From: Prochlorococcus marinus str. NATL2A
GTDB taxonomy: Bacteria; Cyanobacteriota; Cyanobacteriia; PCC-6307; Cyanobiaceae
Reading direction: 5' to 3'
Assembly (NCBI RefSeq): GCF_000012465.1
Contig: NC_007335.2
Coordinates: 1,500,001-1,532,000 of the forward strand
Length of the DNA: 32,000 nt
The position numbers and the translations under genes were made by a program. A model generated the notes under the pieces. It made no database searches, was not told where the DNA came from, and worked only from the letters and a program-made list of their open reading frames with translations. The stretch's first letter is position 1. Every line of letters starts with the position of its first letter. Below, piece by piece: positions 18,516 through 32,000 of this stretch.

Positions 18516-20009
18516 ATGGCTCTTGTTCTACTCCCAGGCTTAAATAACTTAATTGAAGACATTAGTGAGGAAAAAAAGCTTCCATCACAAGTCGTCGAAG
18601 CTGCTTTGAGAGAAGCACTTCTAAAAGGTTATGAACGATATCGAAGAACTCTTTATTTAGGTATCAGCGAAGATCCTTTTGAAGAAGATTATTTCAGTAA
18701 CTTTGATGTTGGTTTAGATCTAGAAGAGGAGGGGTATAGAGTTTTAGCCAGTAAAATAATAGTTGAGGATGTAGAGAGTGATGATCATCAAATAGCAATA
18801 GCAGAGGTTATGCAAGTTGCTGATGATGCTCAAGTTGGCGATACCGTTGTACTAGATGTGACTCCAGAGAAAGAAGATTTTGGAAGAATGGCTGCGGCTA
18901 CAACCAAGCAGGTTTTAGCCCAAAAATTGAGAGATCAGCAAAGAAGAATGATTCAAGAGGAATTTGCTGACCTAGAAGATCCAGTGCTAACTGCCAGGGT
19001 CATTAGATTTGAAAGGCAATCAGTAATCATGGCAGTAAGCTCTGGTTTAGGTAGACCAGAAGTAGAAGCAGAGCTTCCAAGACGAGATCAATTGCCAAAT
19101 GATAATTACCGAGCAAACGCAACATTTAAAGTATTTCTTAAAGAAGTTAGTGAAACACCTAGGAGAGGGCCTCAACTTTTTGTTAGCAGGTCAAATGCTG
19201 GATTGGTTGTATATCTGTTTGAGAATGAAGTTCCTGAAATTCAAGAAGGTTCAGTACGTATAGTTGCTGTTGCTCGTGAAGCAAATCCCCCTTCAAGAGC
19301 AGTAGGTCCCAGAACAAAAGTAGCTGTTGACAGTATTGAAAGAGAGGTTGACCCCGTTGGAGCATGTATTGGTGCAAGAGGTGCTCGAATTCAACAAGTT
19401 GTAAATGAACTTCGTGGAGAAAAAATAGATGTAATTCGTTGGTCTTCAGACCCTGTTCAATACATCTGTAATTCATTAAGTCCTGCAAGAGTTGAAGTAG
19501 TTAGACTTGTGGATCCAGAAGGTCAGCATGCTCATGTCTTAGTTCCTCCAGATCAACTTAGCCTCGCAATTGGTAGAGAAGGGCAAAATGTAAGACTTGC
19601 TGCAAGGCTTACAGGATGGAAAATAGATATCAAAAATTCACAAGAATATGATCAAGCCACTGAAGACTCGGAGGTTGCGGAATTAATTTCTCAAAGAGAA
19701 GAAGAAGAATCTTTACAGAGAGAAGCTGAGAAGAGATTAGAGGCAGAACAGACAGCTAGAGCTGAGGAAGATGCACGCCTAAGAGAGCTATACCCCCTCC
19801 CAGAGGATGAAGAAGACTTTCAAAATGAGGAATTGTCAAACATCGATAGCAATGAAACAGAATCTGAATCTGATTTTGAATCTTCTGAAATTGATTCAAA
19901 TATCGATACTGATGACGCTGAAACCGAAGAAAGTGATATTGATGAAACAATCGAAGACACAGTTACTGCTAAAGATAAAATAATTACAGAAGAGGAAGGA
20001 ACCCGGTGA
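18516..20009 (+). CDS. nusA: Transcription termination/antitermination factor NusA, with an acidic low-complexity C-terminal tail
   Basis: 497-aa ORF with an N-terminal NusA domain plus S1 and KH domains (...GACIGARGARIQ...LAIGREGQNVRLAARLTGWKIDI). The C-terminal ~120 aa are Glu/Asp/Ser-rich. Confidence 0.95.
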   Translation: MALVLLPGLNNLIEDISEEKKLPSQVVEAALREALLKGYERYRRTLYLGISEDPFEEDYFSNFDVGLDLEEEGYRVLASKIIVEDVESDDHQIAIAEVMQVADDAQVGDTVVLDVTPEKEDFGRMAAATTKQVLAQKLRDQQRRMIQEEFADLEDPVLTARVIRFERQSVIMAVSSGLGRPEVEAELPRRDQLPNDNYRANATFKVFLKEVSETPRRGPQLFVSRSNAGLVVYLFENEVPEIQEGSVRIVAVAREANPPSRAVGPRTKVAVDSIEREVDPVGACIGARGARIQQVVNELRGEKIDVIRWSSDPVQYICNSLSPARVEVVRLVDPEGQHAHVLVPPDQLSLAIGREGQNVRLAARLTGWKIDIKNSQEYDQATEDSEVAELISQREEEESLQREAEKRLEAEQTARAEEDARLRELYPLPEDEEDFQNEELSNIDSNETESESDFESSEIDSNIDTDDAETEESDIDETIEDTVTAKDKIITEEEGTR

Positions 20010-20281
20010 GTCAAAACCCCATTCTGCGTAGGTGTATAGCTTGCAAAAAAGTTCTTGATCGCAAGTATTTTTTGAAAGTTACTAGAGATTTTCAGAATGG
20101 AGTAGTTTTCTCAGGTGGGATGGGAAGATCAGCCTATCTCTGTCCAACTGAGTCATGTTTTGAAGAAGCTTTGAAGCGTAAAAGATTACAAAAGTCTTTG
20201 AGATGTGATATTCACTCAAGCGTTTTCAATATGCTCCAAAAACAACTTAATACCTGCATTGATTCAGATACTGAGGCATGA
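20006..20281 (+). CDS. ylxR: YlxR/RnpM-family (DUF448) RNA-binding protein
   Basis: 91-aa ORF beginning ...RRCIACKKV..., in the conserved position between nusA and infB. Its GTG start overlaps the nusA stop (GTGA). Confidence 0.85.
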   Translation: MSQNPILRRCIACKKVLDRKYFLKVTRDFQNGVVFSGGMGRSAYLCPTESCFEEALKRKRLQKSLRCDIHSSVFNMLQKQLNTCIDSDTEA

Positions 20282-20341
20282 TGTTCATTAAGAGAACTCA
20301 GTAAACTCAAAAACCAAATCTAAAGTTCAAGCACAACATTA

Positions 20342-23300
20342 ATGACCAGCAGCGGTAAAATCAGAATTTATGAATTGTCCAAGGATTTAAGCCTTGACAA
20401 TAAAGATGTGCTAGACGCAGCCAGAAAACTTGCAATAGCAGCAAAGAGCCATAGCAGCTCGATAAGCAGTCTTGAGGCAAATCAAATCAAAGATTTTCTA
20501 AAGAAAAGCAATACTATTAATACGACCATTAAATCCAGCAAGAACTTAGACAAGCAAATTCTCTCCGTTAAAAAAAATCCTGTCAAAACTCAAAAAGATC
20601 AAAAGACCGAACCTAAGAAAAAAAACCACGATCAGACAGAGCTTTCACAAGCAAAGTTAAATACCCTGTTAAAACCAAGTCAAACTTTAATTAAAAGCCA
20701 AGGATCTTCTCAAGCCAATAACCAAAAAGCTTTAAAAAATAAATTCCCTGCTAAACAGCAAATAACTTCGCCCTCTAAACCAAACAAACCTTTACCTCCA
20801 AACCCAAGAGTAGAAGTAAAACCCATTATCTCTAAGCCCTTAACTCAAGCCGAGCGTGCGATTCCACAATCCGAACAAAAAAAAGATGGCCAATTCATTA
20901 ACCAACCAAAAAGATCTGAATTAGCTAAAAAATCAATTGGTCAACCAAAGCAAATTAATCCTCAGGAACCAAAGAGACCATTAGCACCACCAAGCAGACC
21001 AAAAATAGATATCCAAGATAAAAAACCCTTACAACCTAATAACCAAAAGGCAAAAACAAGAATTAATCAAGGTGAAATTTCTCCTCAGAAAGTTGGCCAA
21101 GGTAATATCCAAAAAATTAAAAGTCAAAATAAACAGAATGCGCCATCGAGGACCCCTCAGCCTCCAACCAAAGGAAATACTCTTGAACTAGTAGGTGCCC
21201 CAATACGAAAAGAAAAACCTGTAAATAAACCTCATACGAACGAAGTAAGAAATAAGCCCGTAATGCCATCAAGGCCAGGCGCACCAAAACCCCCAACCGC
21301 AGCAAATCGTCAAGGATTATCAAATCGACCTGGTTCTAATAACAGAATTGGTGGGACAGGTCGACCTGGTTCGCCAAATCGACAAGGTCCTAATCGAGGT
21401 GGAGTAGCTAATCGAACTACTCAAGGTCAAAACCGTCCAGGGGCTAATAATCGAGCAGGAGCGCCAGTTCGTAGTGGATCTCCAAATCGAGGGGGGATGC
21501 AAAATAGACCTGGAGTGCCTACCAGGTCCTTGGGTGGCCCAAACCGTTCCAACAATCGACCAGGGGTTCCGTCTGGCATGAGAAAACCAGTTGCACCTAG
21601 TGAATTGATGCAACTGCAAAAACCACAAGCCAGACCAAATGCTCCACAAAGAAAAACTGATTCCCCAACTAGCCTTAGACCTAAAAGAGAAAACTCAACT
21701 GGAGCAAGGCCACCAGTAAATAGGCCAACTCCAGCAGCTCCCAAGAAGCCAGCTCATAGGCCTGGTGGTACTGCTGCTGCCCCAAGAAGAACAGGAAGAC
21801 CTGATTGGGATGACAGTGCAAAGCTTGATGCTTTAAGAAATAAATCCCCCCAAAAGCAGCGTCAAAAGGTCCACATCATTGGAGAAAATGATGATGCACT
21901 AACTGCAGAAAGAGGTGGATTCGCAGGGGAACAACAAGCAGTTGTTCTCTCAGCAAGCTTGGCACGACCATCGAAGCCGAAAGTTGGAAAGAGAAACAAT
22001 GGGAAACCTTTAACTGCTCTAAAAAAACGTAAAAAAGAAACAACTCGTCAAAGGCAACGAAGACGTGCAATGGAATTAAGAGCCTCTAGAGAAGCAAAAC
22101 TTGTAAGACCGGAAATGATTGTTGTTCCAGAAGACAATCTCACAGTTCAAGAGCTTGCTGACATGTTGAGTGTTGAGAGTTCCGAAATCATTAAATCATT
22201 ATTTTTCAAAGGAATTACTGCAACTGTTACTCAATCACTAGATCTAGCGACAATTGAGACAGTTGCTGAGGAATTCGGCGTACCTGTTCTTCAAGATGAT
22301 GTTGAAGAAGCGGCAAAGAAGACAGTTGAAATGATTGAGGAGGGAGATTTAAAATACTTAATAAGAAGACCTCCCGTTGTGACGGTGATGGGGCACGTTG
22401 ATCATGGAAAAACATCTTTACTAGATGCTATTAGAAAAGCAAGGGTTGCAGCAGGGGAAGCTGGGGGCATTACTCAACACATTGGTGCTTATCAAATTGA
22501 GACTGAACACGATGGATCAACTAAGAAACTAACTTTCCTTGATACCCCTGGACATGAAGCTTTTACAGCAATGAGAGCTAGAGGCACTAGGGTCACAGAT
22601 GTAGCAATTTTAGTTGTAGCTGCTGATGATGGCGTTAGGCCTCAAACCCTCGAAGCTATTAGCCATGCAAGAGCAGCAAAAGTACCCATTGTCGTAGCAA
22701 TCAACAAAATTGATAAAGAAGGATCTTCTCCCGACCGCGTAAAACAAGAGTTATCTGAGCAGGATTTATTGTCAGAAGAATGGGGAGGAGACGTGGTAAT
22801 GGTTCCCGTTAGTGCCATTAAAGGCGAAAACATCGATAAACTTTTAGAGATGGTTTTACTCGTAACTGAGGTAGAGGATTTACAAGCAAACCCAGACAGA
22901 TTGGCTAAAGGTACAGTGATTGAAGCCCACTTAGACAAAGCGAAAGGGCCTGTTGCAACATTACTAGTTCAAAATGGCACCCTTAAATCAGGAGATGTAG
23001 TCGCAGCTGGTCCTGTGCTTGGGAAAGTAAGAGCGATGGTAGATGAAAATGGATCTAGGATTAAAGAAGCAGGTCCATCTTGTCCAGTTGAAGCTCTTGG
23101 ATTCAGTGAAGTACCAACAGCTGGAGATGAGTTCGAAGTTTACCCAGATGAAAAGGCCGCAAGAGCAGTTGTGGGAGAACGAGCCACAGACGCTAGAGCC
23201 GCAAGACTTGCTCAGCAAATGGCTTCTAGACGAGTTTCTCTTTCCTCGATGTCTGGGCAAGCAAGTGAGGGTGAACTTAAAGAATTAAATATCATCCTCA

Positions 23301-23893
23301 AAGCTGACGTTCAAGGAAGTTTAGAAGCAATACTTGGCTCTCTAGAACAACTTCCTAAAGACGAGGTCCAAGTAAGAGTATTACTATCAGCTCCAGGTGA
23401 AATCACTGAAACTGATATTGACTTAGCAGCGGCCTCTGGTGCAGTCATAGTTGGATTCAACACTTCAATGGCATCGGGCGCTAAGCGCGCAGCTGATGCT
23501 AATGGTGTTGACGTAAGAGAGTACGAAGTTATTTATAAACTTTTAGAAGATATCCAATTAGCAATGGAGGGCCTTCTAGAACCAGAAATGATAGAAGAAG
23601 CTCTTGGTGTTGCCGAGGTTCGAGCAATCTTTTCAATTGGCAAAAGTGCCGTTGCTGGTTGTTATGTAACCAATGGAAAAATACAACGGAATTGTAGGGC
23701 CAGAGTTAAACGAGGAAAGCAAATCGTTTTTGAAGGCGATCTAGATTCACTAAAAAGGAACAAAGATGACGTCAAAGATGTATCAACAGGCTTCGAATGC
23801 GGAATAGGCTGTGATCGCTTCGCAAACTGGGAAGAAGGAGATCAAATTGAAGCCTTCAAGCTTGTTACTCAAAGAAGAAAATTAAATAATTAG
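20342..23893 (+). CDS. infB: Translation initiation factor IF-2, with a long low-complexity N-terminal region
   Basis: 1183-aa ORF. The C-terminal ~590 aa carry the GTPase motifs ([17 protein letters not shown]). The N-terminal ~560 aa are Pro/Asn/Arg/Gly/Lys/Gln-rich. Confidence 0.97.
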
Positions 23894-23949
23894 CTTCGCT
23901 TATTTGTTAGACCCTAAACCTGACTAGATAACTAATAAAAGCTAGACCA

Positions 23950-24216
23950 CTAATTTGATTCCTCTTTACTCCTATCTTTAAACAACAAAAACCCCAGAAT
24001 TACTAATGCTGATGTTTGGATTGCAAGATCGTTAATAGAGACAGTGTCTCCGGCAATAATATTGGTAACCATGATAAATAAGCCAAGTGCCGCTGACCCA
24101 AATAGAGCTATCCAAACAGCTCTTCTCAAGCCCCGATAAGGATTTTTAGTCTCCTTCAACAGTCGAGCTCTTAAATTAGGATCCAGATTGGAATCAGGCT
24201 TATTAGAATTACTCAA
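23950..24216 (-). CDS. Small conserved two-helix membrane protein (DUF3493-like, from memory)
   Basis: The track ORF (23950..24312) extends through the tRNA gene, so its first 32 codons cannot be real. The first plausible start clear of the tRNA is TTG at 24216, giving (M)SNSNKPDSNLDPNLRARLLKETKNPYRGLRRAVWIALFGSAALGLFIM...LVILGFLLF.... The xLRA..K.P.RGLR motif followed by two membrane helices resembles the cyanobacterial/plastid DUF3493 pattern. Confidence 0.6.
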   Translation of the reverse strand: MSNSNKPDSNLDPNLRARLLKETKNPYRGLRRAVWIALFGSAALGLFIMVTNIIAGDTVSINDLAIQTSALVILGFLLFKDRSKEESN

Positions 24217-24249
24217 AAATAAAATTAAAGATGATAAATTTATTCTAGT

Positions 24250-24321
24250 GCCGGTGTAGCTCAGGGGTAGAGCAACTGATTCGTAACCAGTAGGTCGGTG
24301 GTTCAATTCCACTCATCGGCA
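24250..24321 (+). tRNA. tRNA-Thr (anticodon CGU)
   Basis: Hand-folded cloverleaf. Acceptor stem GCCGGTG/CATCGGC (one G-U pair). D arm GCTC-AGGGGTA-GAGC. Anticodon arm ACTGA-TTCGTAA-CCAGT (U33, anticodon CGT, A37, and an A-C mismatch at positions 31-39). Variable loop AGGTC. T arm GGTGG-TTCAATT-CCACT. Discriminator A. CCA is not encoded. Confidence 0.92.
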
Positions 24322-24579
24322 TAAAGTTTTTAAATAACTTTGCAAAAATTTTCCTGATAGAAGGTGATCTAAATTAAGAACGCAAATATATATATATACC
24401 CTTAGGGCGACTTTGATAACTGCTGAAATGGCTAAACCTTTCCCTTATAAAGCAACTGTTACTAATGATTCTCAGAAAAGCTCCTAGGAATTCTGTTCAT
24501 AACGAAAGTGATCTTAATATGTTAGGGTCTTAGCGCTCTAAATGTATGTCATCGGTTTTTACCCTTACAAACAAAGGTT

Positions 24580-25326
24580 ATGACTTCTACTGCTCCCAAT
24601 GAGAATATTAAGGATAATTTAAAAGATCAAATTTCTTGCAAATTAGTCTCAGAAATAATTCGCGAACGTATACAAGCAAAAGGAGCTAGATTCCATGCAA
24701 ATGATAATATTTCTGATTTCATTCAGCCAGGAGAACTAGAAACTCTAGAAAGAGAAGTTGCCACCAGAGTTAGAGATTTGCTGAAAACTTTATTGATTGA
24801 TGTTGATAATGACCACAACACTCAAGAAACTGCAGAACGCGTTTCTAGAATGTATCTAAATGAAGTATTTAAAGGCAGATATCACCCTCAACCTAAAGTT
24901 ACTAATTTTCCTAACGATAGGAATTTAGATGAGATCTATACACTTGGACCAATAACTGTTCGTTCTGCATGTTCTCATCACTTTGTTCCAATTCTTGGAG
25001 ACTGCTGGATAGGAATAAAACCTGGAGAAAAAGTTATTGGGATATCTAAATTTGCAAGAGTAGCTGATTGGGTCTTTTCTAGGCCACATATTCAAGAAGA
25101 AGCTGTCATGATTCTTGCTGATGAAATAGAGCGATTATGCGAACCCAAAGGTCTAGCGATACTTGTTAAAGCTCAACATTATTGTATGAAATGGCGCGGA
25201 GTCAAAGAGCCTGAAACCAGCATGATCAACTCAATCGTTAGGGGTGATTTTCGCCATGATGCAAGCTTGAAGCAGGAGTTCTTCGAACTTGTTAAGCAAC
25301 AATCCAATTTCGGTAAAAATTATTAG
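24580..25326 (+). CDS. folE: GTP cyclohydrolase I (FolE type)
   Basis: 248-aa ORF with FolE-type blocks (...ETAERVSRMY..., CSHHFVPI compare CEHHxxP, QHYCMKWRGV compare QHxCMxxRGV). Confidence 0.9.
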   Translation: MTSTAPNENIKDNLKDQISCKLVSEIIRERIQAKGARFHANDNISDFIQPGELETLEREVATRVRDLLKTLLIDVDNDHNTQETAERVSRMYLNEVFKGRYHPQPKVTNFPNDRNLDEIYTLGPITVRSACSHHFVPILGDCWIGIKPGEKVIGISKFARVADWVFSRPHIQEEAVMILADEIERLCEPKGLAILVKAQHYCMKWRGVKEPETSMINSIVRGDFRHDASLKQEFFELVKQQSNFGKNY

Positions 25327-25389
25327 AAAGTTTTAAAAAACTATCAACTGACATAGAAGAAAACCCTCAATACTCACGAGGCTTTAGAT

Positions 25390-26619
25390 CTAGAAGTTAA
25401 AAGTGGTTTTCACCAAAGCCCCATTTACTTCCTCTTTACCATCTTTCTCGATAACAAAGATCGCTGGGGTGACTGTGAGACTATCGCTAACTTTAAAATC
25501 GTAAAAAGCTTCCCAAGCTAAAGGATCGTCATAACCACTGTCATTTCTATGAGTTTCTGCTGTTCCAATACCAAAACCAAACTTATTGCCTTCAATCAAG
25601 GCGTTATTCCATAAAAATCCAATAGACCATGTCTTTCCATCTTCAACTTTATTCATAGAAGTATCAGGACTATCATCGTTTTCAGGATTCTTCCATCCTA
25701 TTCCTCCACTCAAGCTGTAGTCGTCTCCAAATTGATAGCTACCACTGACCCCGAAAGAGGAGTAGTCGTTAATATCAGGAGAATTGTCAGTTCTCCCGTT
25801 GTCAGACTGTGTGAATGCAGCTGCAAGAGTATATCTCTCATCAACCCATGCCAACTGAGTAGTGATGTGGTCTTTACCTTCATCAGCTAAAAAGCCAATC
25901 GAAGAGTTTGACGCGTCTTCTGAAACGAAAAGTGCAGAGGCAACTAATTTTTCATAGGACCAAGTAATTCCAGCGCCCGCACCCATCTTCTTGGAATAAG
26001 TATCATTCGCACCTGCCTGATTCAAGACAAACAAAACTCCATCACTTGGGTAAGCACTAGGCCAAACTCCAAGCAAATCATCTTGGCGGAGCTTGGGACC
26101 AAAAGTTACTTGAATATCATCTCCAACAGGGAACTGATAATAAGCCTTATGAAGTTCCAACGAATCACTACTACTGAAAGCAGTATCTAATCTTGCCTCA
26201 CCCATCATTCCAAAGGGTTCCATCATGCCAAAATTGCCAATGCGAACAGCAGTTTTAAGCATGTCTTGACCTGTGAAACTGGTCATAAACATTAACTTTG
26301 TATCGTAATGAAAAACTGTTCCATCCTTTTCGTCAGAAGGAGACATTCCGCCCATTCCACCCATTCCACCCATTCCAGAATCGCTCACGCCATCTACTCC
26401 ACCCAAAACAAAAGTCGTTTTACCCATAAACATAGTTGAGGGGTATGAATCTCCCATATTCATATGACTACCATGGTGATCATGATGACCTTGGTGCTTT
26501 TCACCTCCTGCTTGAACAGCAATTGGAGTTATGAAGCCTAAGACAGCAGGGATTGAGATTAATTGAGCAAAGAGTCTCATAGACCTTATAAGACTAGTAA
26601 AACTAGTAAAGCTATTCAT
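25390..26619 (-). CDS. Putative outer-membrane beta-barrel porin with a His/Met-rich mature N-terminus
   Basis: 409-aa ORF. The signal peptide MRLFAQLISIPAVLGFITPIAVQA|GG suggests the real start may be the second Met at 26580. Much of the sequence is Gly/Asp/Ser/aromatic-rich with alternating hydrophobic residues, and it ends with the OMP-type terminal Phe (...VKTTFNF). No SLH domain is evident. Residues 41-92 read KHQGHHDHHGSHMNMG...GMGGMGGMGGM. Confidence 0.6.
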   Translation of the reverse strand: MNSFTSFTSLIRSMRLFAQLISIPAVLGFITPIAVQAGGEKHQGHHDHHGSHMNMGDSYPSTMFMGKTTFVLGGVDGVSDSGMGGMGGMGGMSPSDEKDGTVFHYDTKLMFMTSFTGQDMLKTAVRIGNFGMMEPFGMMGEARLDTAFSSSDSLELHKAYYQFPVGDDIQVTFGPKLRQDDLLGVWPSAYPSDGVLFVLNQAGANDTYSKKMGAGAGITWSYEKLVASALFVSEDASNSSIGFLADEGKDHITTQLAWVDERYTLAAAFTQSDNGRTDNSPDINDYSSFGVSGSYQFGDDYSLSGGIGWKNPENDDSPDTSMNKVEDGKTWSIGFLWNNALIEGNKFGFGIGTAETHRNDSGYDDPLAWEAFYDFKVSDSLTVTPAIFVIEKDGKEEVNGALVKTTFNF

Positions 26620-26874
26620 GTCTCGTGAAACTAGCTTCTCAGGCTTGTTAAAGGTATAGAATGTGTGCTTTTTGATACAAAGAATCGTATTTTTAGTCTT
26701 TGCCAGGAAGAAACTTAGAACTAATTTCCATCAAAATCTAGTCTCAAAAAGAAGAGATAAAGAATAGTTGGATTGTTTAATTACTTATCTGTTCTAGATT
26801 GTCTGAAAGATTCAATGACAAAGCTCTAGGCTTAATTAGTCTAAAGACTAGGTTTACTAGCCAAAAATAGATAA

Positions 26875-27132
26875 ATGAACAAATTCAAGCCTATTCTCTC
26901 TACAATTATTCTTTCTATATCATTTTCACTAATAGGATGTTCAGATAATTCTCAAACAAAAGGTACTCCCTCTCTTTTTGAGACAAAAATAGAAGCCGAA
27001 AAAGCAGCCAAGGAGTTCAATTGCACTGGAGCTCATAAAATGGGTGACAAATGGATGCCTTGCAAAAGTCATTCTGCTCATGAGGATAAAGAACATAACA
27101 AGTCCAACAATGAACATCACCATCATCACTAG
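26875..27132 (+). CDS. Small lipoprotein with a CxGxHKMGxxWMPCxxH module (DUF3721-like, from memory) and a C-terminal HHHHH tail
   Basis: 85-aa ORF. The signal peptide ends in the lipobox SLIG|C (Cys22). The mature part contains LFETKIEAEKAAKEFNCTGAHKMGDKWMPCKSH followed by SAHEDKEHNKSNNEHHHHH*. The module recurs in the next gene. Confidence 0.75.
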   Translation: MNKFKPILSTIILSISFSLIGCSDNSQTKGTPSLFETKIEAEKAAKEFNCTGAHKMGDKWMPCKSHSAHEDKEHNKSNNEHHHHH

Positions 27133-27147
27133 ATTTTCGAACAATAA

Positions 27148-27591
27148 ATGACAACCAAAAATAGTACAAATCAAAAAGATATCGAAGCACCTTCGCATTG
27201 TGGAAGCAAACCAAAAAAAATTGCATTTGGCATAGCACCACTTGGATTCATTTCCATTGGAATTGTTCCCATGGGTATTGTTAGCATTGGAATTGTTCCC
27301 ATGGGTGTCGTTTCTATTGGTGCTGTAGCCATGGGAGTAATAAATGCCTCAATAGTAGGAATGGGAATATTTTCTGCCGGAATAACAACCATGGGTCTAA
27401 AGGTATGGAGTCCAGAAAACAATGCTATTCAGGAGTCAATCAATCGCTCTAATTCTTCGTCTTCAAAAAATATATATGCATATCCAACTAAAGCTCAGGC
27501 AGAGAGCGAAGCCAAAAAGATCGGATGCAATGGGGTCCATAAGATGGGTAAATTATGGATGCCTTGTGCAATCCATATCAACCCTAACTAA
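27148..27591 (+). CDS. Membrane protein: a hydrophobic (G-x4)n repeat region followed by a second CxGxHKMGxxWMPCxxH module
   Basis: 147-aa ORF starting 15 nt after the previous stop codon, so probably in the same operon. Residues 28-83 have Gly at nearly every fifth position. The C-terminus (AYPTKAQAESEAKKIGCNGVHKMGKLWMPCAIH) matches the module in the upstream gene at 17 of 33 positions by my hand alignment. That match supports the + strand as coding rather than the antisense ORF 27171..27422. Confidence 0.7.
   Translation: MTTKNSTNQKDIEAPSHCGSKPKKIAFGIAPLGFISIGIVPMGIVSIGIVPMGVVSIGAVAMGVINASIVGMGIFSAGITTMGLKVWSPENNAIQESINRSNSSSSKNIYAYPTKAQAESEAKKIGCNGVHKMGKLWMPCAIHINPN
27229..27396 (+). repeat. 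In-frame 15/30-nt periodic repeat encoding GIVPM/GIVSI-type pentapeptides
   Basis: Peptide: G IAPLG FISIG IVPMG IVSIG IVPMG VVSIG AVAMG VINAS IVGMG IFSAG ITTMG. At the DNA level the 22-mer cattggaattgttcccatgggt occurs twice, 30 nt apart (27256-27277 and 27286-27307). Confidence 0.85.
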
Positions 27592-27723
27592 TCTAGAAGT
27601 AATAAAGAATTTAAAGTTGCGGTTTAAAATCCTTGGCAATATATCTACAAACGACTCAATTCATCTCCCTGTTTTTTAACAAATTAGGATTTAATTAACT
27701 TTCGAAAAGTGATCTTAATTGGT

Positions 27724-28341
27724 CTAAGAATATATATCTTCAACTAAAATTGGCCCCTTTTCGCAAATTTGCTGCTGTGAAGGGAACTCTTTATCGGAGC
27801 AACAACATTCTCCTCTATCTGAATTGTTGATCCAATTAATAATCCCTGTTCGGATTGGTTGAGGACATACGTCTCCTTCTTTGAGGTGATTAATTTCTTC
27901 GCTTGTTAAAGGATCAGCATGTTCAATAAAAAGAGACTCTTTAAGTCTAAAAGAACATGTCTCATCCCATTGTTCAAAACAATTTATATGGTTTATAAAA
28001 TCATTCCATGCCTCTTTCATTGATCTATATCCCTTTCTTTTTAATTCTTTTTTAAAAACAGCTTTGATAAATTCATTAAAATTTTCTAATTCTTGAGATG
28101 TAAAAGGTTGAGTTCTTTGAGCTTTAAGTGCTGGCAATTGAAGATTATTTTCAATTAATTGAAGCCTTTGTTCAATTGTTTGAAATCTAGAATCTATCGA
28201 TTCAACAGGAAGGTTCTCTATTTGATTAACAAAACAATCAGAGACAAAACCAACCAATGATTTACCAGAAATCCTGGCACTCTCTTTAATCTTTTCTAAG
28301 AGTTTTGGATCAATACTTACATTAAGTTGCGTTCTCTTCAT
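27724..28341 (-). CDS. Hypothetical protein with a ribbon-helix-helix-like N-terminus, a coiled-coil segment and a Cys-rich C-terminal domain
   Basis: 205-aa ORF. The N-terminus KRTQLNVSIDPKLLEKIKESARISGKSLVGFVSDCFVNQI fits the strand-helix-helix pattern of CopG/Arc/MetJ-type RHH domains. Residues ~50-70 are heptad-like (IDSRFQTIEQRLQLIENNLQL). The C-terminal half has 7 Cys (NCF, ETCS, DVCP, GECCCS, QICE) and 3 His. Coding status is fairly secure; the function is not. Confidence 0.65.
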   Translation of the reverse strand: MKRTQLNVSIDPKLLEKIKESARISGKSLVGFVSDCFVNQIENLPVESIDSRFQTIEQRLQLIENNLQLPALKAQRTQPFTSQELENFNEFIKAVFKKELKRKGYRSMKEAWNDFINHINCFEQWDETCSFRLKESLFIEHADPLTSEEINHLKEGDVCPQPIRTGIINWINNSDRGECCCSDKEFPSQQQICEKGPILVEDIYS

Positions 28342-28499
28342 GATTCAATCAATAAAAGGACGAATTAGAGATCAACTTGTTCTATTTTATTCAAACTAAA
28401 ATCAAATCGTTGTTATTTTCAGATTTCTTGATCTAATTCTAGATTCATAGAGTCTCATCAAATATAGCCAAAAAAATTATGAAAATTTTGTATTCAATT

Positions 28500-29285
28500 C
28501 TAATTACTCCTTGGAAGCAAGATCAATGAAATTACACAAAGAACACTAATAAGTGGGCCTGGAGGCAAATTCATAAACATAGAGAACGAAAAACCAATGA
28601 TCGATAAAACTAATCCAAATATGGAAGATCTAACCATCGCAACCCATAGAGAGCTAGCTTTCTGTAAACCCAACAAAGTTGGAGTTGAGAGTAACGCAAT
28701 CACAAGGATGACCCCGACTGCTGACATTGAGCTCACAATGACAAGTGCAGTGGTAAATCCCAGAGCTAAATTTAAAAAAGACACATTAACTCCACTTGAG
28801 GCAGCTCCTTCTGGGTCTAAACCAATATGAACAAGCTTGTCGTACCCAAAAAGCATTAAGCAAATGAATGCCGAGAACGCAATCAAAGTTCTTAATAAAT
28901 CGCTCAAATTTGCAGTTAATAAATCTCCAAACAAAACAGCCTCTAAATCAATCCTGATTCCAAGTAAAGGTATAAGCAAAACTCCAAGTCCCATCGAACC
29001 AGCAAGAATTGTATTCATTACAGCTTCATAATTTTGATTTTTCTTATTTGTCAAACTCTCTGCTGCAATAGCTCCCACTAATCCGCTTAAGACACCTCCA
29101 ATAGATGGGTCAATCCCAAGCGCCATAGCCAAGGCAAGTCCTGGCAAAACACAATGTGAAATTAAATTGACTTGAAGAAGCCTTTTGTGAGTGATCAATA
29201 CAGTTCCCATAGCAGGGCAAAGTATTCCTGAAAAGGAAGTTATCAAAAGAGGAATTATCCACCAATTTGTATTGAAAAAAGACAT
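28500..29285 (-). CDS. znuB: Zinc/manganese ABC transporter permease (ABC-3 family), ZnuB-like
   Basis: 261-aa polytopic membrane ORF with ABC-3-type sequence (...EAVLFGDLL...). It sits with the ATPase, the substrate-binding protein and a Fur-family regulator. Confidence 0.9.
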   Translation of the reverse strand: MSFFNTNWWIIPLLITSFSGILCPAMGTVLITHKRLLQVNLISHCVLPGLALAMALGIDPSIGGVLSGLVGAIAAESLTNKKNQNYEAVMNTILAGSMGLGVLLIPLLGIRIDLEAVLFGDLLTANLSDLLRTLIAFSAFICLMLFGYDKLVHIGLDPEGAASSGVNVSFLNLALGFTTALVIVSSMSAVGVILVIALLSTPTLLGLQKASSLWVAMVRSSIFGLVLSIIGFSFSMFMNLPPGPLISVLCVISLILLPRSN

Positions 29286-29302
29286 TAAGCCAATGATTCA
29301 GT

Positions 29303-29743
29303 ATGGTCAGTAAGAGAGATCAAGTTAAGATCTTGCTAATGAGTACAAGCAAGCCTGAAATCACTAAACGACAACAACAACTGCTCAATGAACTCAAGAA
29401 CTGTACTGATGAATTGAGCGGGCAAGAGCTGCATAGACAACTTCATAATGGTGAAAAGGCAATGGGACTGACCACGGTCTATCGAAACCTGCAAGCACTA
29501 GTAAAGCAAGGTTTGATTCGTTCCAGACATCTTCCCAACGGTGAGGTTCTTTATGCGCCCGTTGAAAGAGATATACATCATTTAACTTGCGTAAGCTGTG
29601 GAGAAACCACACGCTTGAAGGGATGTCCGGTCAAAATGATGGATCTGTCGAAAAACACCTCTAAAAACTTTGAGCTTTTGTTTCATACTCTTGAGTACTT
29701 TGGTCTCTGCCAAACTTGTTCTCAGCAATTGAATGCTGGATAA
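29303..29743 (+). CDS. zur: Fur-family metalloregulator, probably Zur
   Basis: 146-aa ORF with a winged-helix region (LTTVYRNLQALVKQGLI), an HHLTCVSCG motif and a second CxxC (LCQTCS), which together would form a Cys4 structural site. Calling it Zur rather than Fur or PerR is inferred from its position inside the znu cluster. The start could instead be Met13 (29339). Confidence 0.8.
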   Translation: MVSKRDQVKILLMSTSKPEITKRQQQLLNELKNCTDELSGQELHRQLHNGEKAMGLTTVYRNLQALVKQGLIRSRHLPNGEVLYAPVERDIHHLTCVSCGETTRLKGCPVKMMDLSKNTSKNFELLFHTLEYFGLCQTCSQQLNAG

Positions 29744-29766
29744 GAGTATTTGAATATGAATCAAAC

Positions 29767-30462
29767 CTATAACTTCCACCTCAAATAATTAATTGAACTA
29801 AGTTTTTCTTGAACTTCCTGAGGGCTACCAGAAGCCAAAATAATTTTATCTAAAGCAACAACCTTGTCATAGGCATTTAAAGATGTTCCCCAGTCGTGAC
29901 TACTAACAAAAACCGTGAACCCCGAATCGGCTAGCTGACGAATAATTAACAGGAAATCTTCTTTAGCCGGAGGATCAAAGGCGGAGCAAGGTTCATCAAG
30001 AAGAAAAATTTTGGCTGGATTCATTAATGTTTTTGCAAGTAATGCTCTTTGTTGCTGTCCACCAGACAGAGCATCAAGTCTCCTTTTTGCTAAATGAGAT
30101 ATTCCAACACGTTGAAGAGCCGCTTCTAATTCACAACAAGTCGATTTCGAATGATTGACTCGGCCCAAAGAAACTAATCCTTCAACAGTAATTGGAAAAT
30201 TCCAATTGAGCTTCCCCCTCTGAGGCATTAAAGCCACTTGAGATCGATTATTTCGCAATGGTTTCCCATCAACAGTAATTTCCCCTTGATTCGGTTTACT
30301 ACTCCCTTGCAGCAAGCTTAATAATGTGGACTTACCAGCACCATTCGGACCAACAAGAGCAGTCAAAGTACCTTGCTCAAGCTTTAGAGAAACCTTGCTT
30401 AAAGCAGGTTTAATTTTACTTGAATAAGAATATGTCAAATTTTCAGCAATCAAGCTAGGCAT
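29767..30462 (-). CDS. znuC: Zinc/manganese ABC transporter ATP-binding protein, ZnuC-like
   Basis: 231-aa ORF with Walker A (GPNGAGKST), the ABC signature (LSGGQQQR) and Walker B (IFLLDEP). Confidence 0.9.
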   Translation of the reverse strand: MPSLIAENLTYSYSSKIKPALSKVSLKLEQGTLTALVGPNGAGKSTLLSLLQGSSKPNQGEITVDGKPLRNNRSQVALMPQRGKLNWNFPITVEGLVSLGRVNHSKSTCCELEAALQRVGISHLAKRRLDALSGGQQQRALLAKTLMNPAKIFLLDEPCSAFDPPAKEDFLLIIRQLADSGFTVFVSSHDWGTSLNAYDKVVALDKIILASGSPQEVQEKLSSINYLRWKL

Positions 30463-30512
30463 TAATTAGAGGATTTGCTGACAAGAAACATAATATACTT
30501 GCCAAGACCAAA

Positions 30513-30531
30513 TGAAAATGATTATCGTTTT
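30513..30531. promoter_or_regulatory. Fur/Zur-box-like palindrome in the divergent znuC/znuA intergenic region
   Basis: TGAAAAT-G-ATTATCG (30513-30527) matches the classical 7-1-7 box TGATAAT-N-ATTATCA at 12 of 14 positions. In a second register, AAAATGAT-T-ATCGTTTT (30515-30531) has arms that are complementary at 7 of 8 positions. It lies 12-24 nt upstream of the candidate znuA starts. Confidence 0.5.
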
Positions 30532-30542
30532 AGATACGCTTT

Positions 30543-32000
30543 GTGTTTTTAACGTTGAATTTTTCAAATCAGTCCAAAAAGGTTAAACCCATAATCAATA
30601 AAACAGTTCTCAAAAGTTCTCTTGTTGCTGGAGCATTTTTATTTTCTGGAATCAATCAGACAGCGCAAGCAAATACAAAATCAATTGTTGCTGTAGAGCC
30701 ATTGGTTTGCGATGTTGTATCTGCGATTGCACCACCCTCTACGCCCGTGACCTGCTTAATTGACAGAAAGCAAGATGTTCATGATGTCAAGATCACTCCA
30801 AGGCAAGCTCAAACACTAAAAAGTGCGAATCAAGTATTTACTCTTGGTTCAGAGATGACCCCTGCAATTAAAAAATGGTTGGATAATCCTTTAACTGTTG
30901 TCGTTGGTGTAAGTGCAATAGAAATAGACGATCATGACGACCACGATGATCATGACGATCATTCAGCTGCTAAGCATGATGATCATGACGACCACGATGA
31001 TCATGACGATCATTCAGCTGCTAAGCATGATGATCATGACGACCACGATGATCATGACGATGCCCATGGAGAGGGAGCTTTTGAATGGGCTGGTGTTTTT
31101 GATCTTTCCGCAGGAGTCTACAAATGGTCTTTCGCCAAAGTTGATGGAGACTATGCTGATCCTGCGATGAAAATGGTTATTCTTAAGTCTGGTGATATTG
31201 AAGCATCAGAAGAGCTTGCTAAAGAATTATTAGGATCCAAAAATTCAGAAGTTAAGCGCAATAATGACAAACTTATTGCGCAGGACAAAGCCTACCTTCT
31301 TACATTTAATGAAAAGAAAGACATCACAACATTTACTGTAGAAATCAAAAAATCTGGTAAATACGCTTTCTTTACTGAGCATATGCCGTTTGAGTTTGAA
31401 GCCGATGAACATTTCTTTAAAGATGTTTCAGGCGACGATGTGGAACCGATTTCCCAAGTACCAGATGAAGGAGATCATCATCACCATGACCATGGAGGCT
31501 TAGATCCTCATATTTGGCATGATCCACATAACATCATCAAGATGGGAAATGTAATTTCTAAAAATATCAACAAAAAGATTTCATTCTTTGATAGAGAAAC
31601 TAAAAAAGTTTTAAAAGAAAGAACTCAATCTGTAAATTCCATTTTGAAAGATCTAGATCAATGGACTCAAGAACAAATAGCTACTATTCCTTCTGATCAA
31701 AGGACGATGGTTTCTAAGCACAAAGCCATGGAATATTATGGAGATGCATTTGGATTGAAGACCATGAGCCTACTAGATTTTCTTGGTGATTCATCCAGCC
31801 TTAGGCCTCAAACTATTTCAACTGTATTAGCTGAGCTTAAAGAAGAAAACGTGAAAGTTTTATTCGCTGAGCAAAAGCCTCCTTCAAAGCTATTGAGAAA
31901 CCTCAGTAGACAAACTTCCACTCCTATCGCATCAAATCAAATCTATGTTGACGGTCTAATGCCAACAGGGAATACTGTTTCAGTTGCTGTACATAACACC
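30543..32000 (+). CDS. znuA: Periplasmic zinc-binding protein ZnuA (cluster A-I substrate-binding protein) with a greatly enlarged His/Asp-rich loop; 3' end runs off the window
   Basis: Absent from the ORF track because there is no stop before position 32000. Hand translation in the frame of 30543 is open to the window end: (GTG)FLTLNFSNQSKKVKPIINKTVLKSSLVAGAFLFSGINQTAQA|NTKSIVAVEPL...VHDVKITPRQAQTL...(HDD)n...GLDPHIWHDP...SKHKAMEYYGDAFGL...VLFAEQ.... It has a signal peptide and ZnuA-type ligand motifs (HD, DPHIW, and the HxAxxYxxxxFGL region). In-frame stops lie at 30513, 30519 and 30531, and no ATG is available, so the start is GTG 30543 or TTG 30555. Confidence 0.85.
   Translation, partial: MFLTLNFSNQSKKVKPIINKTVLKSSLVAGAFLFSGINQTAQANTKSIVAVEPLVCDVVSAIAPPSTPVTCLIDRKQDVHDVKITPRQAQTLKSANQVFTLGSEMTPAIKKWLDNPLTVVVGVSAIEIDDHDDHDDHDDHSAAKHDDHDDHDDHDDHSAAKHDDHDDHDDHDDAHGEGAFEWAGVFDLSAGVYKWSFAKVDGDYADPAMKMVILKSGDIEASEELAKELLGSKNSEVKRNNDKLIAQDKAYLLTFNEKKDITTFTVEIKKSGKYAFFTEHMPFEFEADEHFFKDVSGDDVEPISQVPDEGDHHHHDHGGLDPHIWHDPHNIIKMGNVISKNINKKISFFDRETKKVLKERTQSVNSILKDLDQWTQEQIATIPSDQRTMVSKHKAMEYYGDAFGLKTMSLLDFLGDSSSLRPQTISTVLAELKEENVKVLFAEQKPPSKLLRNLSRQTSTPIASNQIYVDGLMPTGNTVSVAVHNT
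30930..31061 (+). repeat. Perfect 51-bp in-frame tandem repeat (2.6 copies) inside znuA, encoding DHDDHDDHDDHSAAKHD
   Basis: The unit gatcatgacgaccacgatgatcatgacgatcattcagctgctaagcatgat occupies 30930-30980 and repeats identically at 30981-31031. Its first 30 nt repeat again at 31032-31061. Confidence 0.95.

Follow-up and report, generated by a model that had tools for sequence, protein, structure and literature searches.

A mobile Prochlorococcus gene cassette found beside zur-znuABC, with a possible role in envelope metal handling

Prochlorococcus is the ocean's most abundant phototroph. To our knowledge, little has been established about how it brings picomolar zinc, cobalt, nickel and copper through the outer membrane and the periplasm, and we know of no TonB-dependent receptors or siderophores in this genus. 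A 32,000-nucleotide stretch of Prochlorococcus marinus str. NATL2A (contig NC_007335.2, positions 1,500,001 to 1,532,000; hereafter the window, numbered from its first letter) raises the question of what four uncharacterised genes, each rich in potential metal ligands, are doing directly next to zur-znuABC. A preliminary description, made from the letters of the window, had proposed that these genes—encoding an outer-membrane porin, a lipoprotein, a membrane protein and a protein with a ribbon-helix-helix (RHH)-like N terminus—may form a relay that passes zinc or another metal to ZnuA and ZnuBC, controlled by Zur and possibly by the RHH-like protein. Here we propose a different arrangement, to which we give about an even chance (probability of roughly 0.5): the genes constitute a self-contained, horizontally mobile Prochlorococcus cassette for the handling of a divalent transition metal in the cell envelope, with its own putative regulator and no Zur sites. 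What stands of the earlier proposal is that the four genes are a functional unit with long-conserved metal-ligand signatures; what falls is their role as an appendage of ZnuABC under Zur.

The gene inventory itself was accurate. A six-frame list of open reading frames (ORFs) reproduces every coordinate, strand and motif that had been quoted for the four genes, and profile matches bear out the claim of a standard zur-znuABC set (ABC-3 for znuB, FUR for zur, ABC_tran for znuC and PF01297 for ZnuA; coordinates are collected in Table 1). By exact-sequence look-up, proteins of the window are AAZ58518-58521 and AAZ58523 of P. marinus NATL2A, of which the small ones are annotated just as 'family PM-24', 'GLTT repeat' and 'family PM-12'. 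A search of the literature on DUF3721 (the Pfam domain, PF12518, that the lipoprotein and the membrane protein share), on the PMN2A locus tags and on zinc, cobalt, copper and porins in Prochlorococcus found nothing about these genes.

Genomic distribution and the question of Zur control

To place the genes in a wider context, one genome per species was scanned with a DUF3721 alignment (289 relatives, from which 80 loci were kept, almost all of them Prochlorococcus), and the window genes were placed on these loci by tblastn and clustering of all ORFs, with counts taken over 81 loci. The invariant unit is the tandem pair of lipoprotein and membrane-protein genes, which occurs in many genomic contexts. 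The order seen in the window, (folE)-porin-lipoprotein-membrane protein-rhh-znuB-zur-znuC-znuA (rhh being the gene for the RHH-like protein), is found in about 25 loci, all at least 80% identical to the window (LLI, including MIT 0916), which therefore represent a single lineage. In 10 of the 81 loci, the porin gene, with or without rhh, lies beside the pair with no znu gene, and eight of these encode a short porin with a His-rich N terminus. The combination of rhh, His-rich porin and pair with no znu gene nearby is seen in loci L001, L024, L035 (MIT 9302), L049, L053 and L069; in L005 and L059, the pair is accompanied by the His-rich porin, and rhh is missing from the surrounding 10 kb. Since the same genes keep company at unrelated sites in other lineages, the four make up a genuine cassette, one that changes its place in the genome.

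Conserved linkage to znuABC across related genomes, whose absence the preliminary description had named among the findings that would refute it, is confined to the LLI lineage, which weakens the relay idea; in MIT 9302 and others the cassette lies elsewhere, and universal znu linkage is ruled out by the 81 loci. Within LLI, the stretch from the tRNA-Thr gene to znuB is variable, with the porin gene, folE and a gene for a 160-residue secreted protein each present or absent, and the adjacency of cassette and znu genes is a single evolutionary event beside a tRNA in this variable region. The secreted protein, which has no Pfam match, recurs beside the porin gene, hupE (a gene for a HupE/UreJ permease) or the DUF3721 pair (L005, 8255-8737; L019, 7876-8358; nine further loci), and could be one more component of the cassette. 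Cassette genes abound in ocean metagenomes, where the membrane protein by itself forms 1,705 clusters at 90% identity, one of which has 905 members, and they are variably present among cells, as niche-adaptive genes would be.

The promoter regions point the same way. Zur boxes were sought with the znuC/znuA palindrome and with a consensus built from LLI and remoter (about 60% identical) znu sites. The window holds one perfect match, which is also its sole intergenic site: an inverted repeat at 30512-30531, in the gap that separates the divergently transcribed znuC and znuA, kept in 22 related loci. For Prochlorococcus, Barnett et al. 2012 (PMC3323870) reported a zur-znuABC cluster with a Zur box, and in Synechococcus WH8102 a single Zur box between znuC and znuA has been shown experimentally and the Zur regulon is small (PMC9337993); the window agrees with both. 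No ATGAWAAYNRTTWTCRT-like box with up to two mismatches was found in 26620-26874 or in 28342-28499, and none precedes the porin gene, the lipoprotein operon or rhh in the window or in 22 syntenic loci. Control of the four genes by Zur, as had been suggested, is not supported, as neither the palindrome nor the consensus matched upstream of them.

Metal-ligand signatures of the envelope proteins

The two core proteins are built around the same small domain. Against the 33-residue DUF3721 profile, the lipoprotein scores 69.9 bits and the membrane protein 66.3 bits (cutoff 27), and both show its HKMG...WMPC core. The lipoprotein has a lipobox (LIGC, in FSLIGC|S) and a single DUF3721 domain (C-x3-H-x8-C-x2-H), and its His-rich C-terminal tail finishes in HHHHH. 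By motif inspection, a lipobox-like motif is present in 53 of 60 lipoprotein orthologues, and 58 of 60 distinct lipoproteins have three or more histidines within their C-terminal 15 residues. The membrane protein begins with HCGSKPKK, continues with about 60 residues of hydrophobic decapeptide repeats (IGIVPMGxVS, 5-6 copies) and ends in a DUF3721 domain; the HCG motif is found in about all of 76 membrane proteins. As the second gene starts 15 bp after the first, the two probably form one operon.

An HMMER search returned 385 clusters at 50% identity that carry DUF3721. The C-x3-H-x8-C-x2-H pattern is kept in 104-115 of 122 DUF3721 domains (50%-identity clusters), and H-x-M, W and MP are also near-invariant in the 122, a set for which the search pattern itself demanded an MP-like pair before the second cysteine. 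Cassette motifs persist in orthologues of just 50-60% identity and are therefore more than chance. AlphaFold2 (AF2) modelled the membrane protein at an overall predicted local distance difference test (pLDDT) score of 47.6, with confidence in the DUF3721 part alone (about 80-85), which is drawn as a helix followed by a β-hairpin flanked by the two cysteines; Foldseek of this low-confidence model against the PDB gave no match. Separately, proteins of 68-115 residues that consist of IGxVPMG repeats alone, with no DUF3721, are encoded at L001 8741-8947, L026 1144-1353, L036 4209-4445 and L064 10643-10897, often 3' of the membrane-protein gene, and may be partner subunits.

The third envelope component is a porin. 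The ORF at 25390-26619 has 409 residues. Its nearest homologues have 396, and a CTAG repeat that is conserved as non-coding DNA overlaps its first 13 codons, which together place the start probably at Met14 (26580) rather than at 26619. It is divergent, and is matched below the cutoffs and in the barrel part alone by both Pfam OprB (18.8 bits; cutoff 22.9) and NCBIfam por_somb (90.1 bits; cutoff 100), in the latter of which profile positions 137-485 are aligned; in phmmer searches it matches PF04966-bearing proteins at E = 1e-111 to 1e-88. As the NCBIfam alignment begins at profile position 137, the N-terminal S-layer homology (SLH) domain is lacking, and a His-rich tract stands there instead; remoter homologues of about 460-500 residues (P0093, P0100 and P0102) do have the SLH domain PF00395. 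The mature N terminus (GGEKHQGHHDHHGSHMNMG) is followed by a variable (GMG)n insert, and its His-rich character is kept across lineages in the short porins linked to the cassette. The (GMG)n tract is encoded by a 9-bp DNA repeat (26344-26377), occurs in the porins of LLI type with a long intergenic region, varies from 2 to 6 copies among close strains and is missing from other porins. The closest known relatives are the OprB-type 'iron uptake' porins (por_somb), homologous β-barrels with 51% identity in PF04966 proteins annotated 'iron uptake porin', which serve as diffusion channels in the outer membrane and have been proposed as an entry route for inorganic metal; the cassette porin differs from these in having a conserved His-rich tail in place of SLH and in scoring below both curated cutoffs.

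The RHH-like protein and the CTAG repeats

The most concrete new result is a predicted pairing of the RHH-like protein with a DNA operator. Its N terminus resembles RHH proteins at sub-cutoff scores (Pfam DUF6364, 18.9 bits, cutoff 27.3; YlcI_YnfO_N, 21.1 bits, cutoff 30), and hhalign sets it against a CopG sequence over residues 6-39 (pairwise E = 0.004, probability 8%); these three weak matches are all in register. A PDB sequence search with the profile of the RHH-like protein returned nothing significant. The protein has four invariant cysteines (C121, C159, C179 and C181), including a C-x-C motif.

Alignment of the divergent intergenic region between the porin and lipoprotein genes revealed tandem CTAG cores at a fixed 9-bp spacing just 5' of both starts. 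Those on the porin side lie 14-35 nucleotides before the probable porin start, and Tandem Repeats Finder (TRF) independently reports a 9-bp repeat of 2.9 copies at 26589-26614; those on the lipoprotein side end 5 nucleotides ahead of the start codon, with an extra CTAG at 26826. The presence of these repeats follows that of rhh: among loci with rhh, CTAG-N5-CTAG stands ahead of the lipoprotein gene in 27 of 30, as against 1 of 30 among loci without rhh (Fisher p = 2e-12), and ahead of the porin gene in 23 of 27. In the LLI genome of locus L020, rhh and the CTAG motif have both been lost. Across 1.47 Mb of loci, 57 of 93 CTAG-N5-CTAG motifs fall at porin and lipoprotein promoters, and the motif never precedes rhh itself. 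In L024, L035 (MIT 9302), L049 and L069, a single triple CTAG site occupies a divergent porin-lipoprotein gap of about 70 bp that both genes share, which argues for a DNA operator rather than an RNA element; Rfam at gathering scores, over 20000-32000, reports a tRNA-Thr and no other RNA element. A common upstream motif was sought in the loci without rhh, and none was convincing.

On the strength of this co-occurrence, the RHH-like protein appears to be the cassette's own putative regulator, working through the CTAG repeats as candidate operators. We infer that it may bind these repeats and that a metal may modulate the binding. A further element, a TGTG-N8-TACA box, is present in 17 of 26 porin-lipoprotein intergenic regions, all of the long type; we take it to resemble an NtcA/CRP-type site, through which a different regulator would also act on porin expression.

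The arrangement recalls the RHH metalloregulator NikR and the metal-uptake operon nikABCDE under it, in which an RHH-type N terminus is joined to a metal-sensing C terminus (both putative in the cassette protein), the regulator gene lies beside transport genes and the operator is a repeated half-site (a candidate one here). There are differences: the cassette protein has no detectable NikR homology, its C terminus is helical with four cysteines in a low-confidence model whereas that of NikR is an ACT-like domain with a His3Cys site, and its operator would be a tandem array of 9-bp CTAG repeats instead of a widely spaced inverted repeat. Membership of the NikR family was considered and rejected, as hhalign against an Escherichia coli NikR sequence aligns neither the RHH nor the C-terminal part.

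Proposed function, choice of metal and alternatives

What, then, might the cassette do? Its recurrent neighbours are informative. The hupE gene adjoins the pair in 9-10 loci, and seven of the eight that were checked carry a cobalamin riboswitch (Table 1); a hupE of this type is a proposed cobalt importer in marine cyanobacteria (PMC4284471). Overlapping double Zur boxes stand 40-47 bp 5' of a COG0523-like operon (L001 3397-3419, L014 9633-9655 and L029 5356-5378), which encodes a short P-loop protein (CobW_C) and two metallophosphoesterase-like proteins and adjoins or lies near the DUF3721 genes in three arrangements. A second lineage, of about 60% identity, has znu genes at a distance of 2-8 kb from the DUF3721 pair (L037, L057, L065 and L071). 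These hupE and Zur-box COG0523 neighbours, the C-x3-H-x8-C-x2-H motif and the His tails favour the handling of a divalent metal. For its identity, the Cys2His2-type motif together with the zinc and cobalt neighbours favours a Zn(II)/Co(II)-type ion, tentatively and at somewhat less than even odds, over copper, which is unlikely, and nickel, which is less likely again. Pulling the other way, the Met-rich (GMG)n insert would suit Cu(I), as would the PMG repeats and the H-x-M...W-M motif, and the poly-His tracts would suit Ni.

Under the favoured reading of a self-contained envelope cassette, a plausible layout, drawn from sequence features, would run from the outer-membrane porin to the lipoprotein and membrane protein, with a regulator in addition. 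The core would comprise a periplasm-facing lipoprotein that is little more than one DUF3721 mini-domain and a poly-His tail, and a small membrane protein that would hold its HCG motif in the cytoplasm and its DUF3721 domain in the periplasm and whose hydrophobic repeats are rich in Met, Gly and Pro. A subset of genomes would add two accessories: an OprB-type porin bearing a His-rich tail where the SLH anchor usually is, and a cytoplasmic RHH-like protein with four invariant cysteines. The latter would occupy the 9-bp-spaced CTAG operators at the porin gene and the lipoprotein operon, its occupancy shifting when metal binds the Cys site. Once expressed, the porin would let the metal ion in, the His tail of the porin and the His tail and DUF3721 site of the lipoprotein would capture it, and the ion would be handed to the membrane protein and/or to an importer of the inner membrane, ZnuABC or HupE for instance, depending on which the genome encodes. 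Acquisition is favoured over detoxification because the porin would be co-regulated with the binding proteins.

The best-supported reading is of a mobile cassette that would work like known metal-uptake accessory systems but is made of uncharacterised parts. Among such systems, ZinT and the His-rich loop of ZnuA are also small periplasmic His-rich proteins or segments that concentrate metal near an importer, and the NATL2A cassette does adjoin znuABC; DUF3721, however, is unrelated to them in sequence, and the cassette lipoprotein is lipid-anchored, has no Zur box and shows no consistent znu linkage. ZepA, a Zur-regulated exoprotein for zinc uptake in Anabaena (PMC10957091), is a recent example of a non-canonical extracytoplasmic metal-acquisition accessory in cyanobacteria. 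It differs in being Zur-regulated and in having no stated domains in common with the cassette, and PMC10957091 makes no mention of Prochlorococcus, porins or lipoproteins.

The zinc relay of the preliminary description, feeding ZnuA and ZnuBC within a Zur-controlled response to zinc limitation and with the RHH-like protein as co-regulator, draws on a good deal of this material. Adjacency to zur-znuABC is kept throughout LLI; only 158 bp separate znuB from rhh, which follows it downstream and shares its strand; the pair turns up again near znu genes in the second lineage and by Zur-box COG0523 operons, and in L014 the double Zur box sits in the divergent region, 253 bp ahead of the lipoprotein gene; and a Cys2His2-type motif with His-rich tails is typical of zinc proteins. 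Against it stand the lack of a Zur box before any of the four genes, the intact cassettes without znu in other lineages such as MIT 9302, the cassette's own candidate regulator-operator pair and the origin of the LLI linkage in one event by a tRNA, and we regard the relay as unlikely. A system for copper buffering or import seems to us slightly less probable than the relay. It would combine a CusF/CopM/PcoE-like binder, a PcoB-like Met/His-rich outer-membrane protein, a CTR-like, Met-lined membrane protein and a regulator sensing Cu(I) through thiolates, and could call on the Met-rich (GMG)n insert and HMNM motif of the porin, on the near-invariant H-x-M, W and M of DUF3721 (which we take to be the residue set of the CusF Cu(I) site), on the approximately five PMG repeats in the membrane segment and on the C-x-C motif of the RHH-like protein. 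Prochlorococcus is also copper-sensitive. The resemblance to CusF/CopM/PcoE and PcoB/CopB is one of composition only—a small periplasmic binder rich in His, Met and Trp, and an outer-membrane protein with a Met/His-rich N-terminal region—and no homology was found. With the eukaryotic copper channel CTR1 the membrane protein would share, purely by analogy, small size, an extracytoplasmic Met/His/Cys domain, Met/Gly-rich membrane segments and a cytosolic His-Cys motif; AF2 gave no confident model of its membrane part. Telling against copper are the narrow occurrence and unstable copy number of the (GMG)n insert, the zinc- and cobalt-related nature of the recurrent neighbours, and the fact that no copper gene (P1B-ATPase, plastocyanin or multicopper oxidase) was seen in any of the 81 neighbourhoods.

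Other observations weigh against any role in metal handling, the favoured reading included. The two cysteines of DUF3721 could form a periplasmic disulfide instead of binding metal. The domain sits as a module inside phage XkdF-like (Peptidase_S78_2) proteases, which are cytoplasmic (in IMG/VR contigs L087, L089 (5506-6615), L094-L096, L101, L102, L105 and L106), it occurs three times in a secreted, Synechococcus-like protein without metal neighbours (L058 9653-10132), and it is fused once to a thioredoxin-like protein (P0515); it may therefore be a generic structural mini-domain. In 32 of the 81 loci, the pair stands alone with no metal gene within 10 kb. Where hupE is present it is convergent with the pair and hence not co-transcribed, and adjacency as such is weak evidence because islands cluster at hot spots. 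On the regulatory side, the RHH label rests on sub-threshold profile matches, AF2 gave no usable model of the protein (pLDDT 53; two N-terminal helices and no confident strand), and L005 and L059 have the operator with no rhh within reach. One may thus picture the genes as flexible envelope island genes, varying under phage- or grazer-driven selection on porins and surfaces, with DUF3721 a disulfide-stabilised module and the His tracts incidental. The island-like, hypervariable contexts, the insertion of the domain in phage head-protease-like proteins, the hint of redox or disulfide chemistry in P0515 and the 32 loci without a metal neighbour all fit this picture. It does not explain why the His tails of the lipoprotein and the His-rich N terminus of the porin are kept across 40-50% sequence divergence, nor why hupE, znu and COG0523 genes recur by the pair far above the expectation for single genes in a genome of about 2,000 genes. 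A phage or defence origin was tried and rejected, with 0 PADLOC matches and a marginal PHROG match only, and tblastn of the lipoprotein against GenBank phages gave no match. We judge the account without a metal role the least probable of the three alternatives.

Should the metal-acquisition reading with its own sensor hold, it would give a role to a Pfam domain of unknown function, add to those known a metalloregulator and an operator for which homology to characterised families is not detectable, and provide a genetic marker of trace-metal stress to set beside the metal fields of GEOTRACES. A bolder version, which we consider doubtful, would make DUF3721 a new envelope metal-trafficking family, the HCG-repeat-DUF3721 protein a small oligomeric metal importer of a new type and the RHH-Cys4 protein, acting on tandem CTAG operators, a new class of metalloregulator, which with the His-tailed porin would constitute a flexible, island-encoded, high-affinity Zn/Co route across both membranes.

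Table 1 Coordinates of the cassette, its candidate regulatory sites and neighbouring elements in the window, and of cobalamin riboswitches in related loci
Feature	Sequence	Position	Strand	Basis or remark
SLH-less OprB-type porin gene	window	25390..26580	minus	ORF listed to 26619; probable start Met14
Porin-side candidate operator	window	26589..26615		3 CTAG/CTAT cores at 26594, 26603, 26612
TGTG-N8-TACA box	window	26664..26679		porin/lipoprotein divergent intergenic region; alignment block
Lipoprotein-side candidate operator	window	26843..26870		CTAG at 26848, 26857; ATAG at 26867
DUF3721 lipoprotein gene (AAZ58519, 'family PM-24')	window	26875..27132	plus	Pfam PF12518
HCG-repeat-DUF3721 membrane protein gene	window	27148..27591	plus	Pfam PF12518
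Putative RHH-type protein gene (AAZ58521, 'family PM-12')	window	27724..28341	minus	weak profile matches; 4 invariant Cys
znuB (ABC-3 permease), neighbour outside the cassette	window	28500..29285	minus	Pfam
zur (Fur family)	window	29303..29743	plus	profile match; Barnett et al. 2012, PMC3323870
znuC (ABC ATPase)	window	29767..30462	minus	Pfam
Zur box ATGAAAATGATTATCGTTTT	window	30512..30531		divergent znuC/znuA promoter region
znuA, start codon uncertain, extends past window end	window	30543..32000	plus	PF01297
tRNA-Thr (CGT)	window	24249-24322		between DUF3493 gene and folE
Cobalamin riboswitch	L014	10884-11030		directly 5' of hupE
Cobalamin riboswitch	L016	11293-11439		directly 5' of hupE
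Cobalamin riboswitch	L041	7004-7149		directly 5' of hupE
Cobalamin riboswitch	L054	9626-9771		directly 5' of hupE
Cobalamin riboswitch	L056	11732-11878		directly 5' of hupE
Cobalamin riboswitch	L064	11703-11849		directly 5' of hupE
Cobalamin riboswitch	L067	11367-11509		directly 5' of hupE

A few features lie at the margins of the cassette. The tRNA-Thr gene overlaps an over-long N-terminal extension of the ORF at 23950-24312, and the region has the appearance of an island hot spot. Loci L056 and L071 have a ZnuA-like gene after hupE. Of DUF3721 proteins elsewhere, some larger viral or metagenomic proteins of head-protease-like type have two copies of the domain. The contig of L058 is labelled 'Asaia bogorensis MAG' and has 59% GC; it resembles marine Synechococcus, as we take it, and is presumably mis-binned.

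The znuA gene of the window contains a perfect 51-bp tandem repeat of 2.6 copies (30930-31061) that encodes (HDD)n-SAAK, followed by an insert of about 110 residues (approximately 31062-31480) for which neither Pfam nor the PDB offers a match; in remoter lineages (L037 and L071, for example), ZnuA-like proteins have just about 307 residues and are without that insert. In these two loci, a β-barrel protein of about 313 residues is encoded directly beside znuA (L037 12156-13097; L071 3580-4533). It has His-rich tracts (SHAHGGGGG and HEEEGHDDHGDDHD), a final Phe and a near-threshold match to Pfam Phage_OMP, and may be a dedicated outer-membrane partner of ZnuABC.

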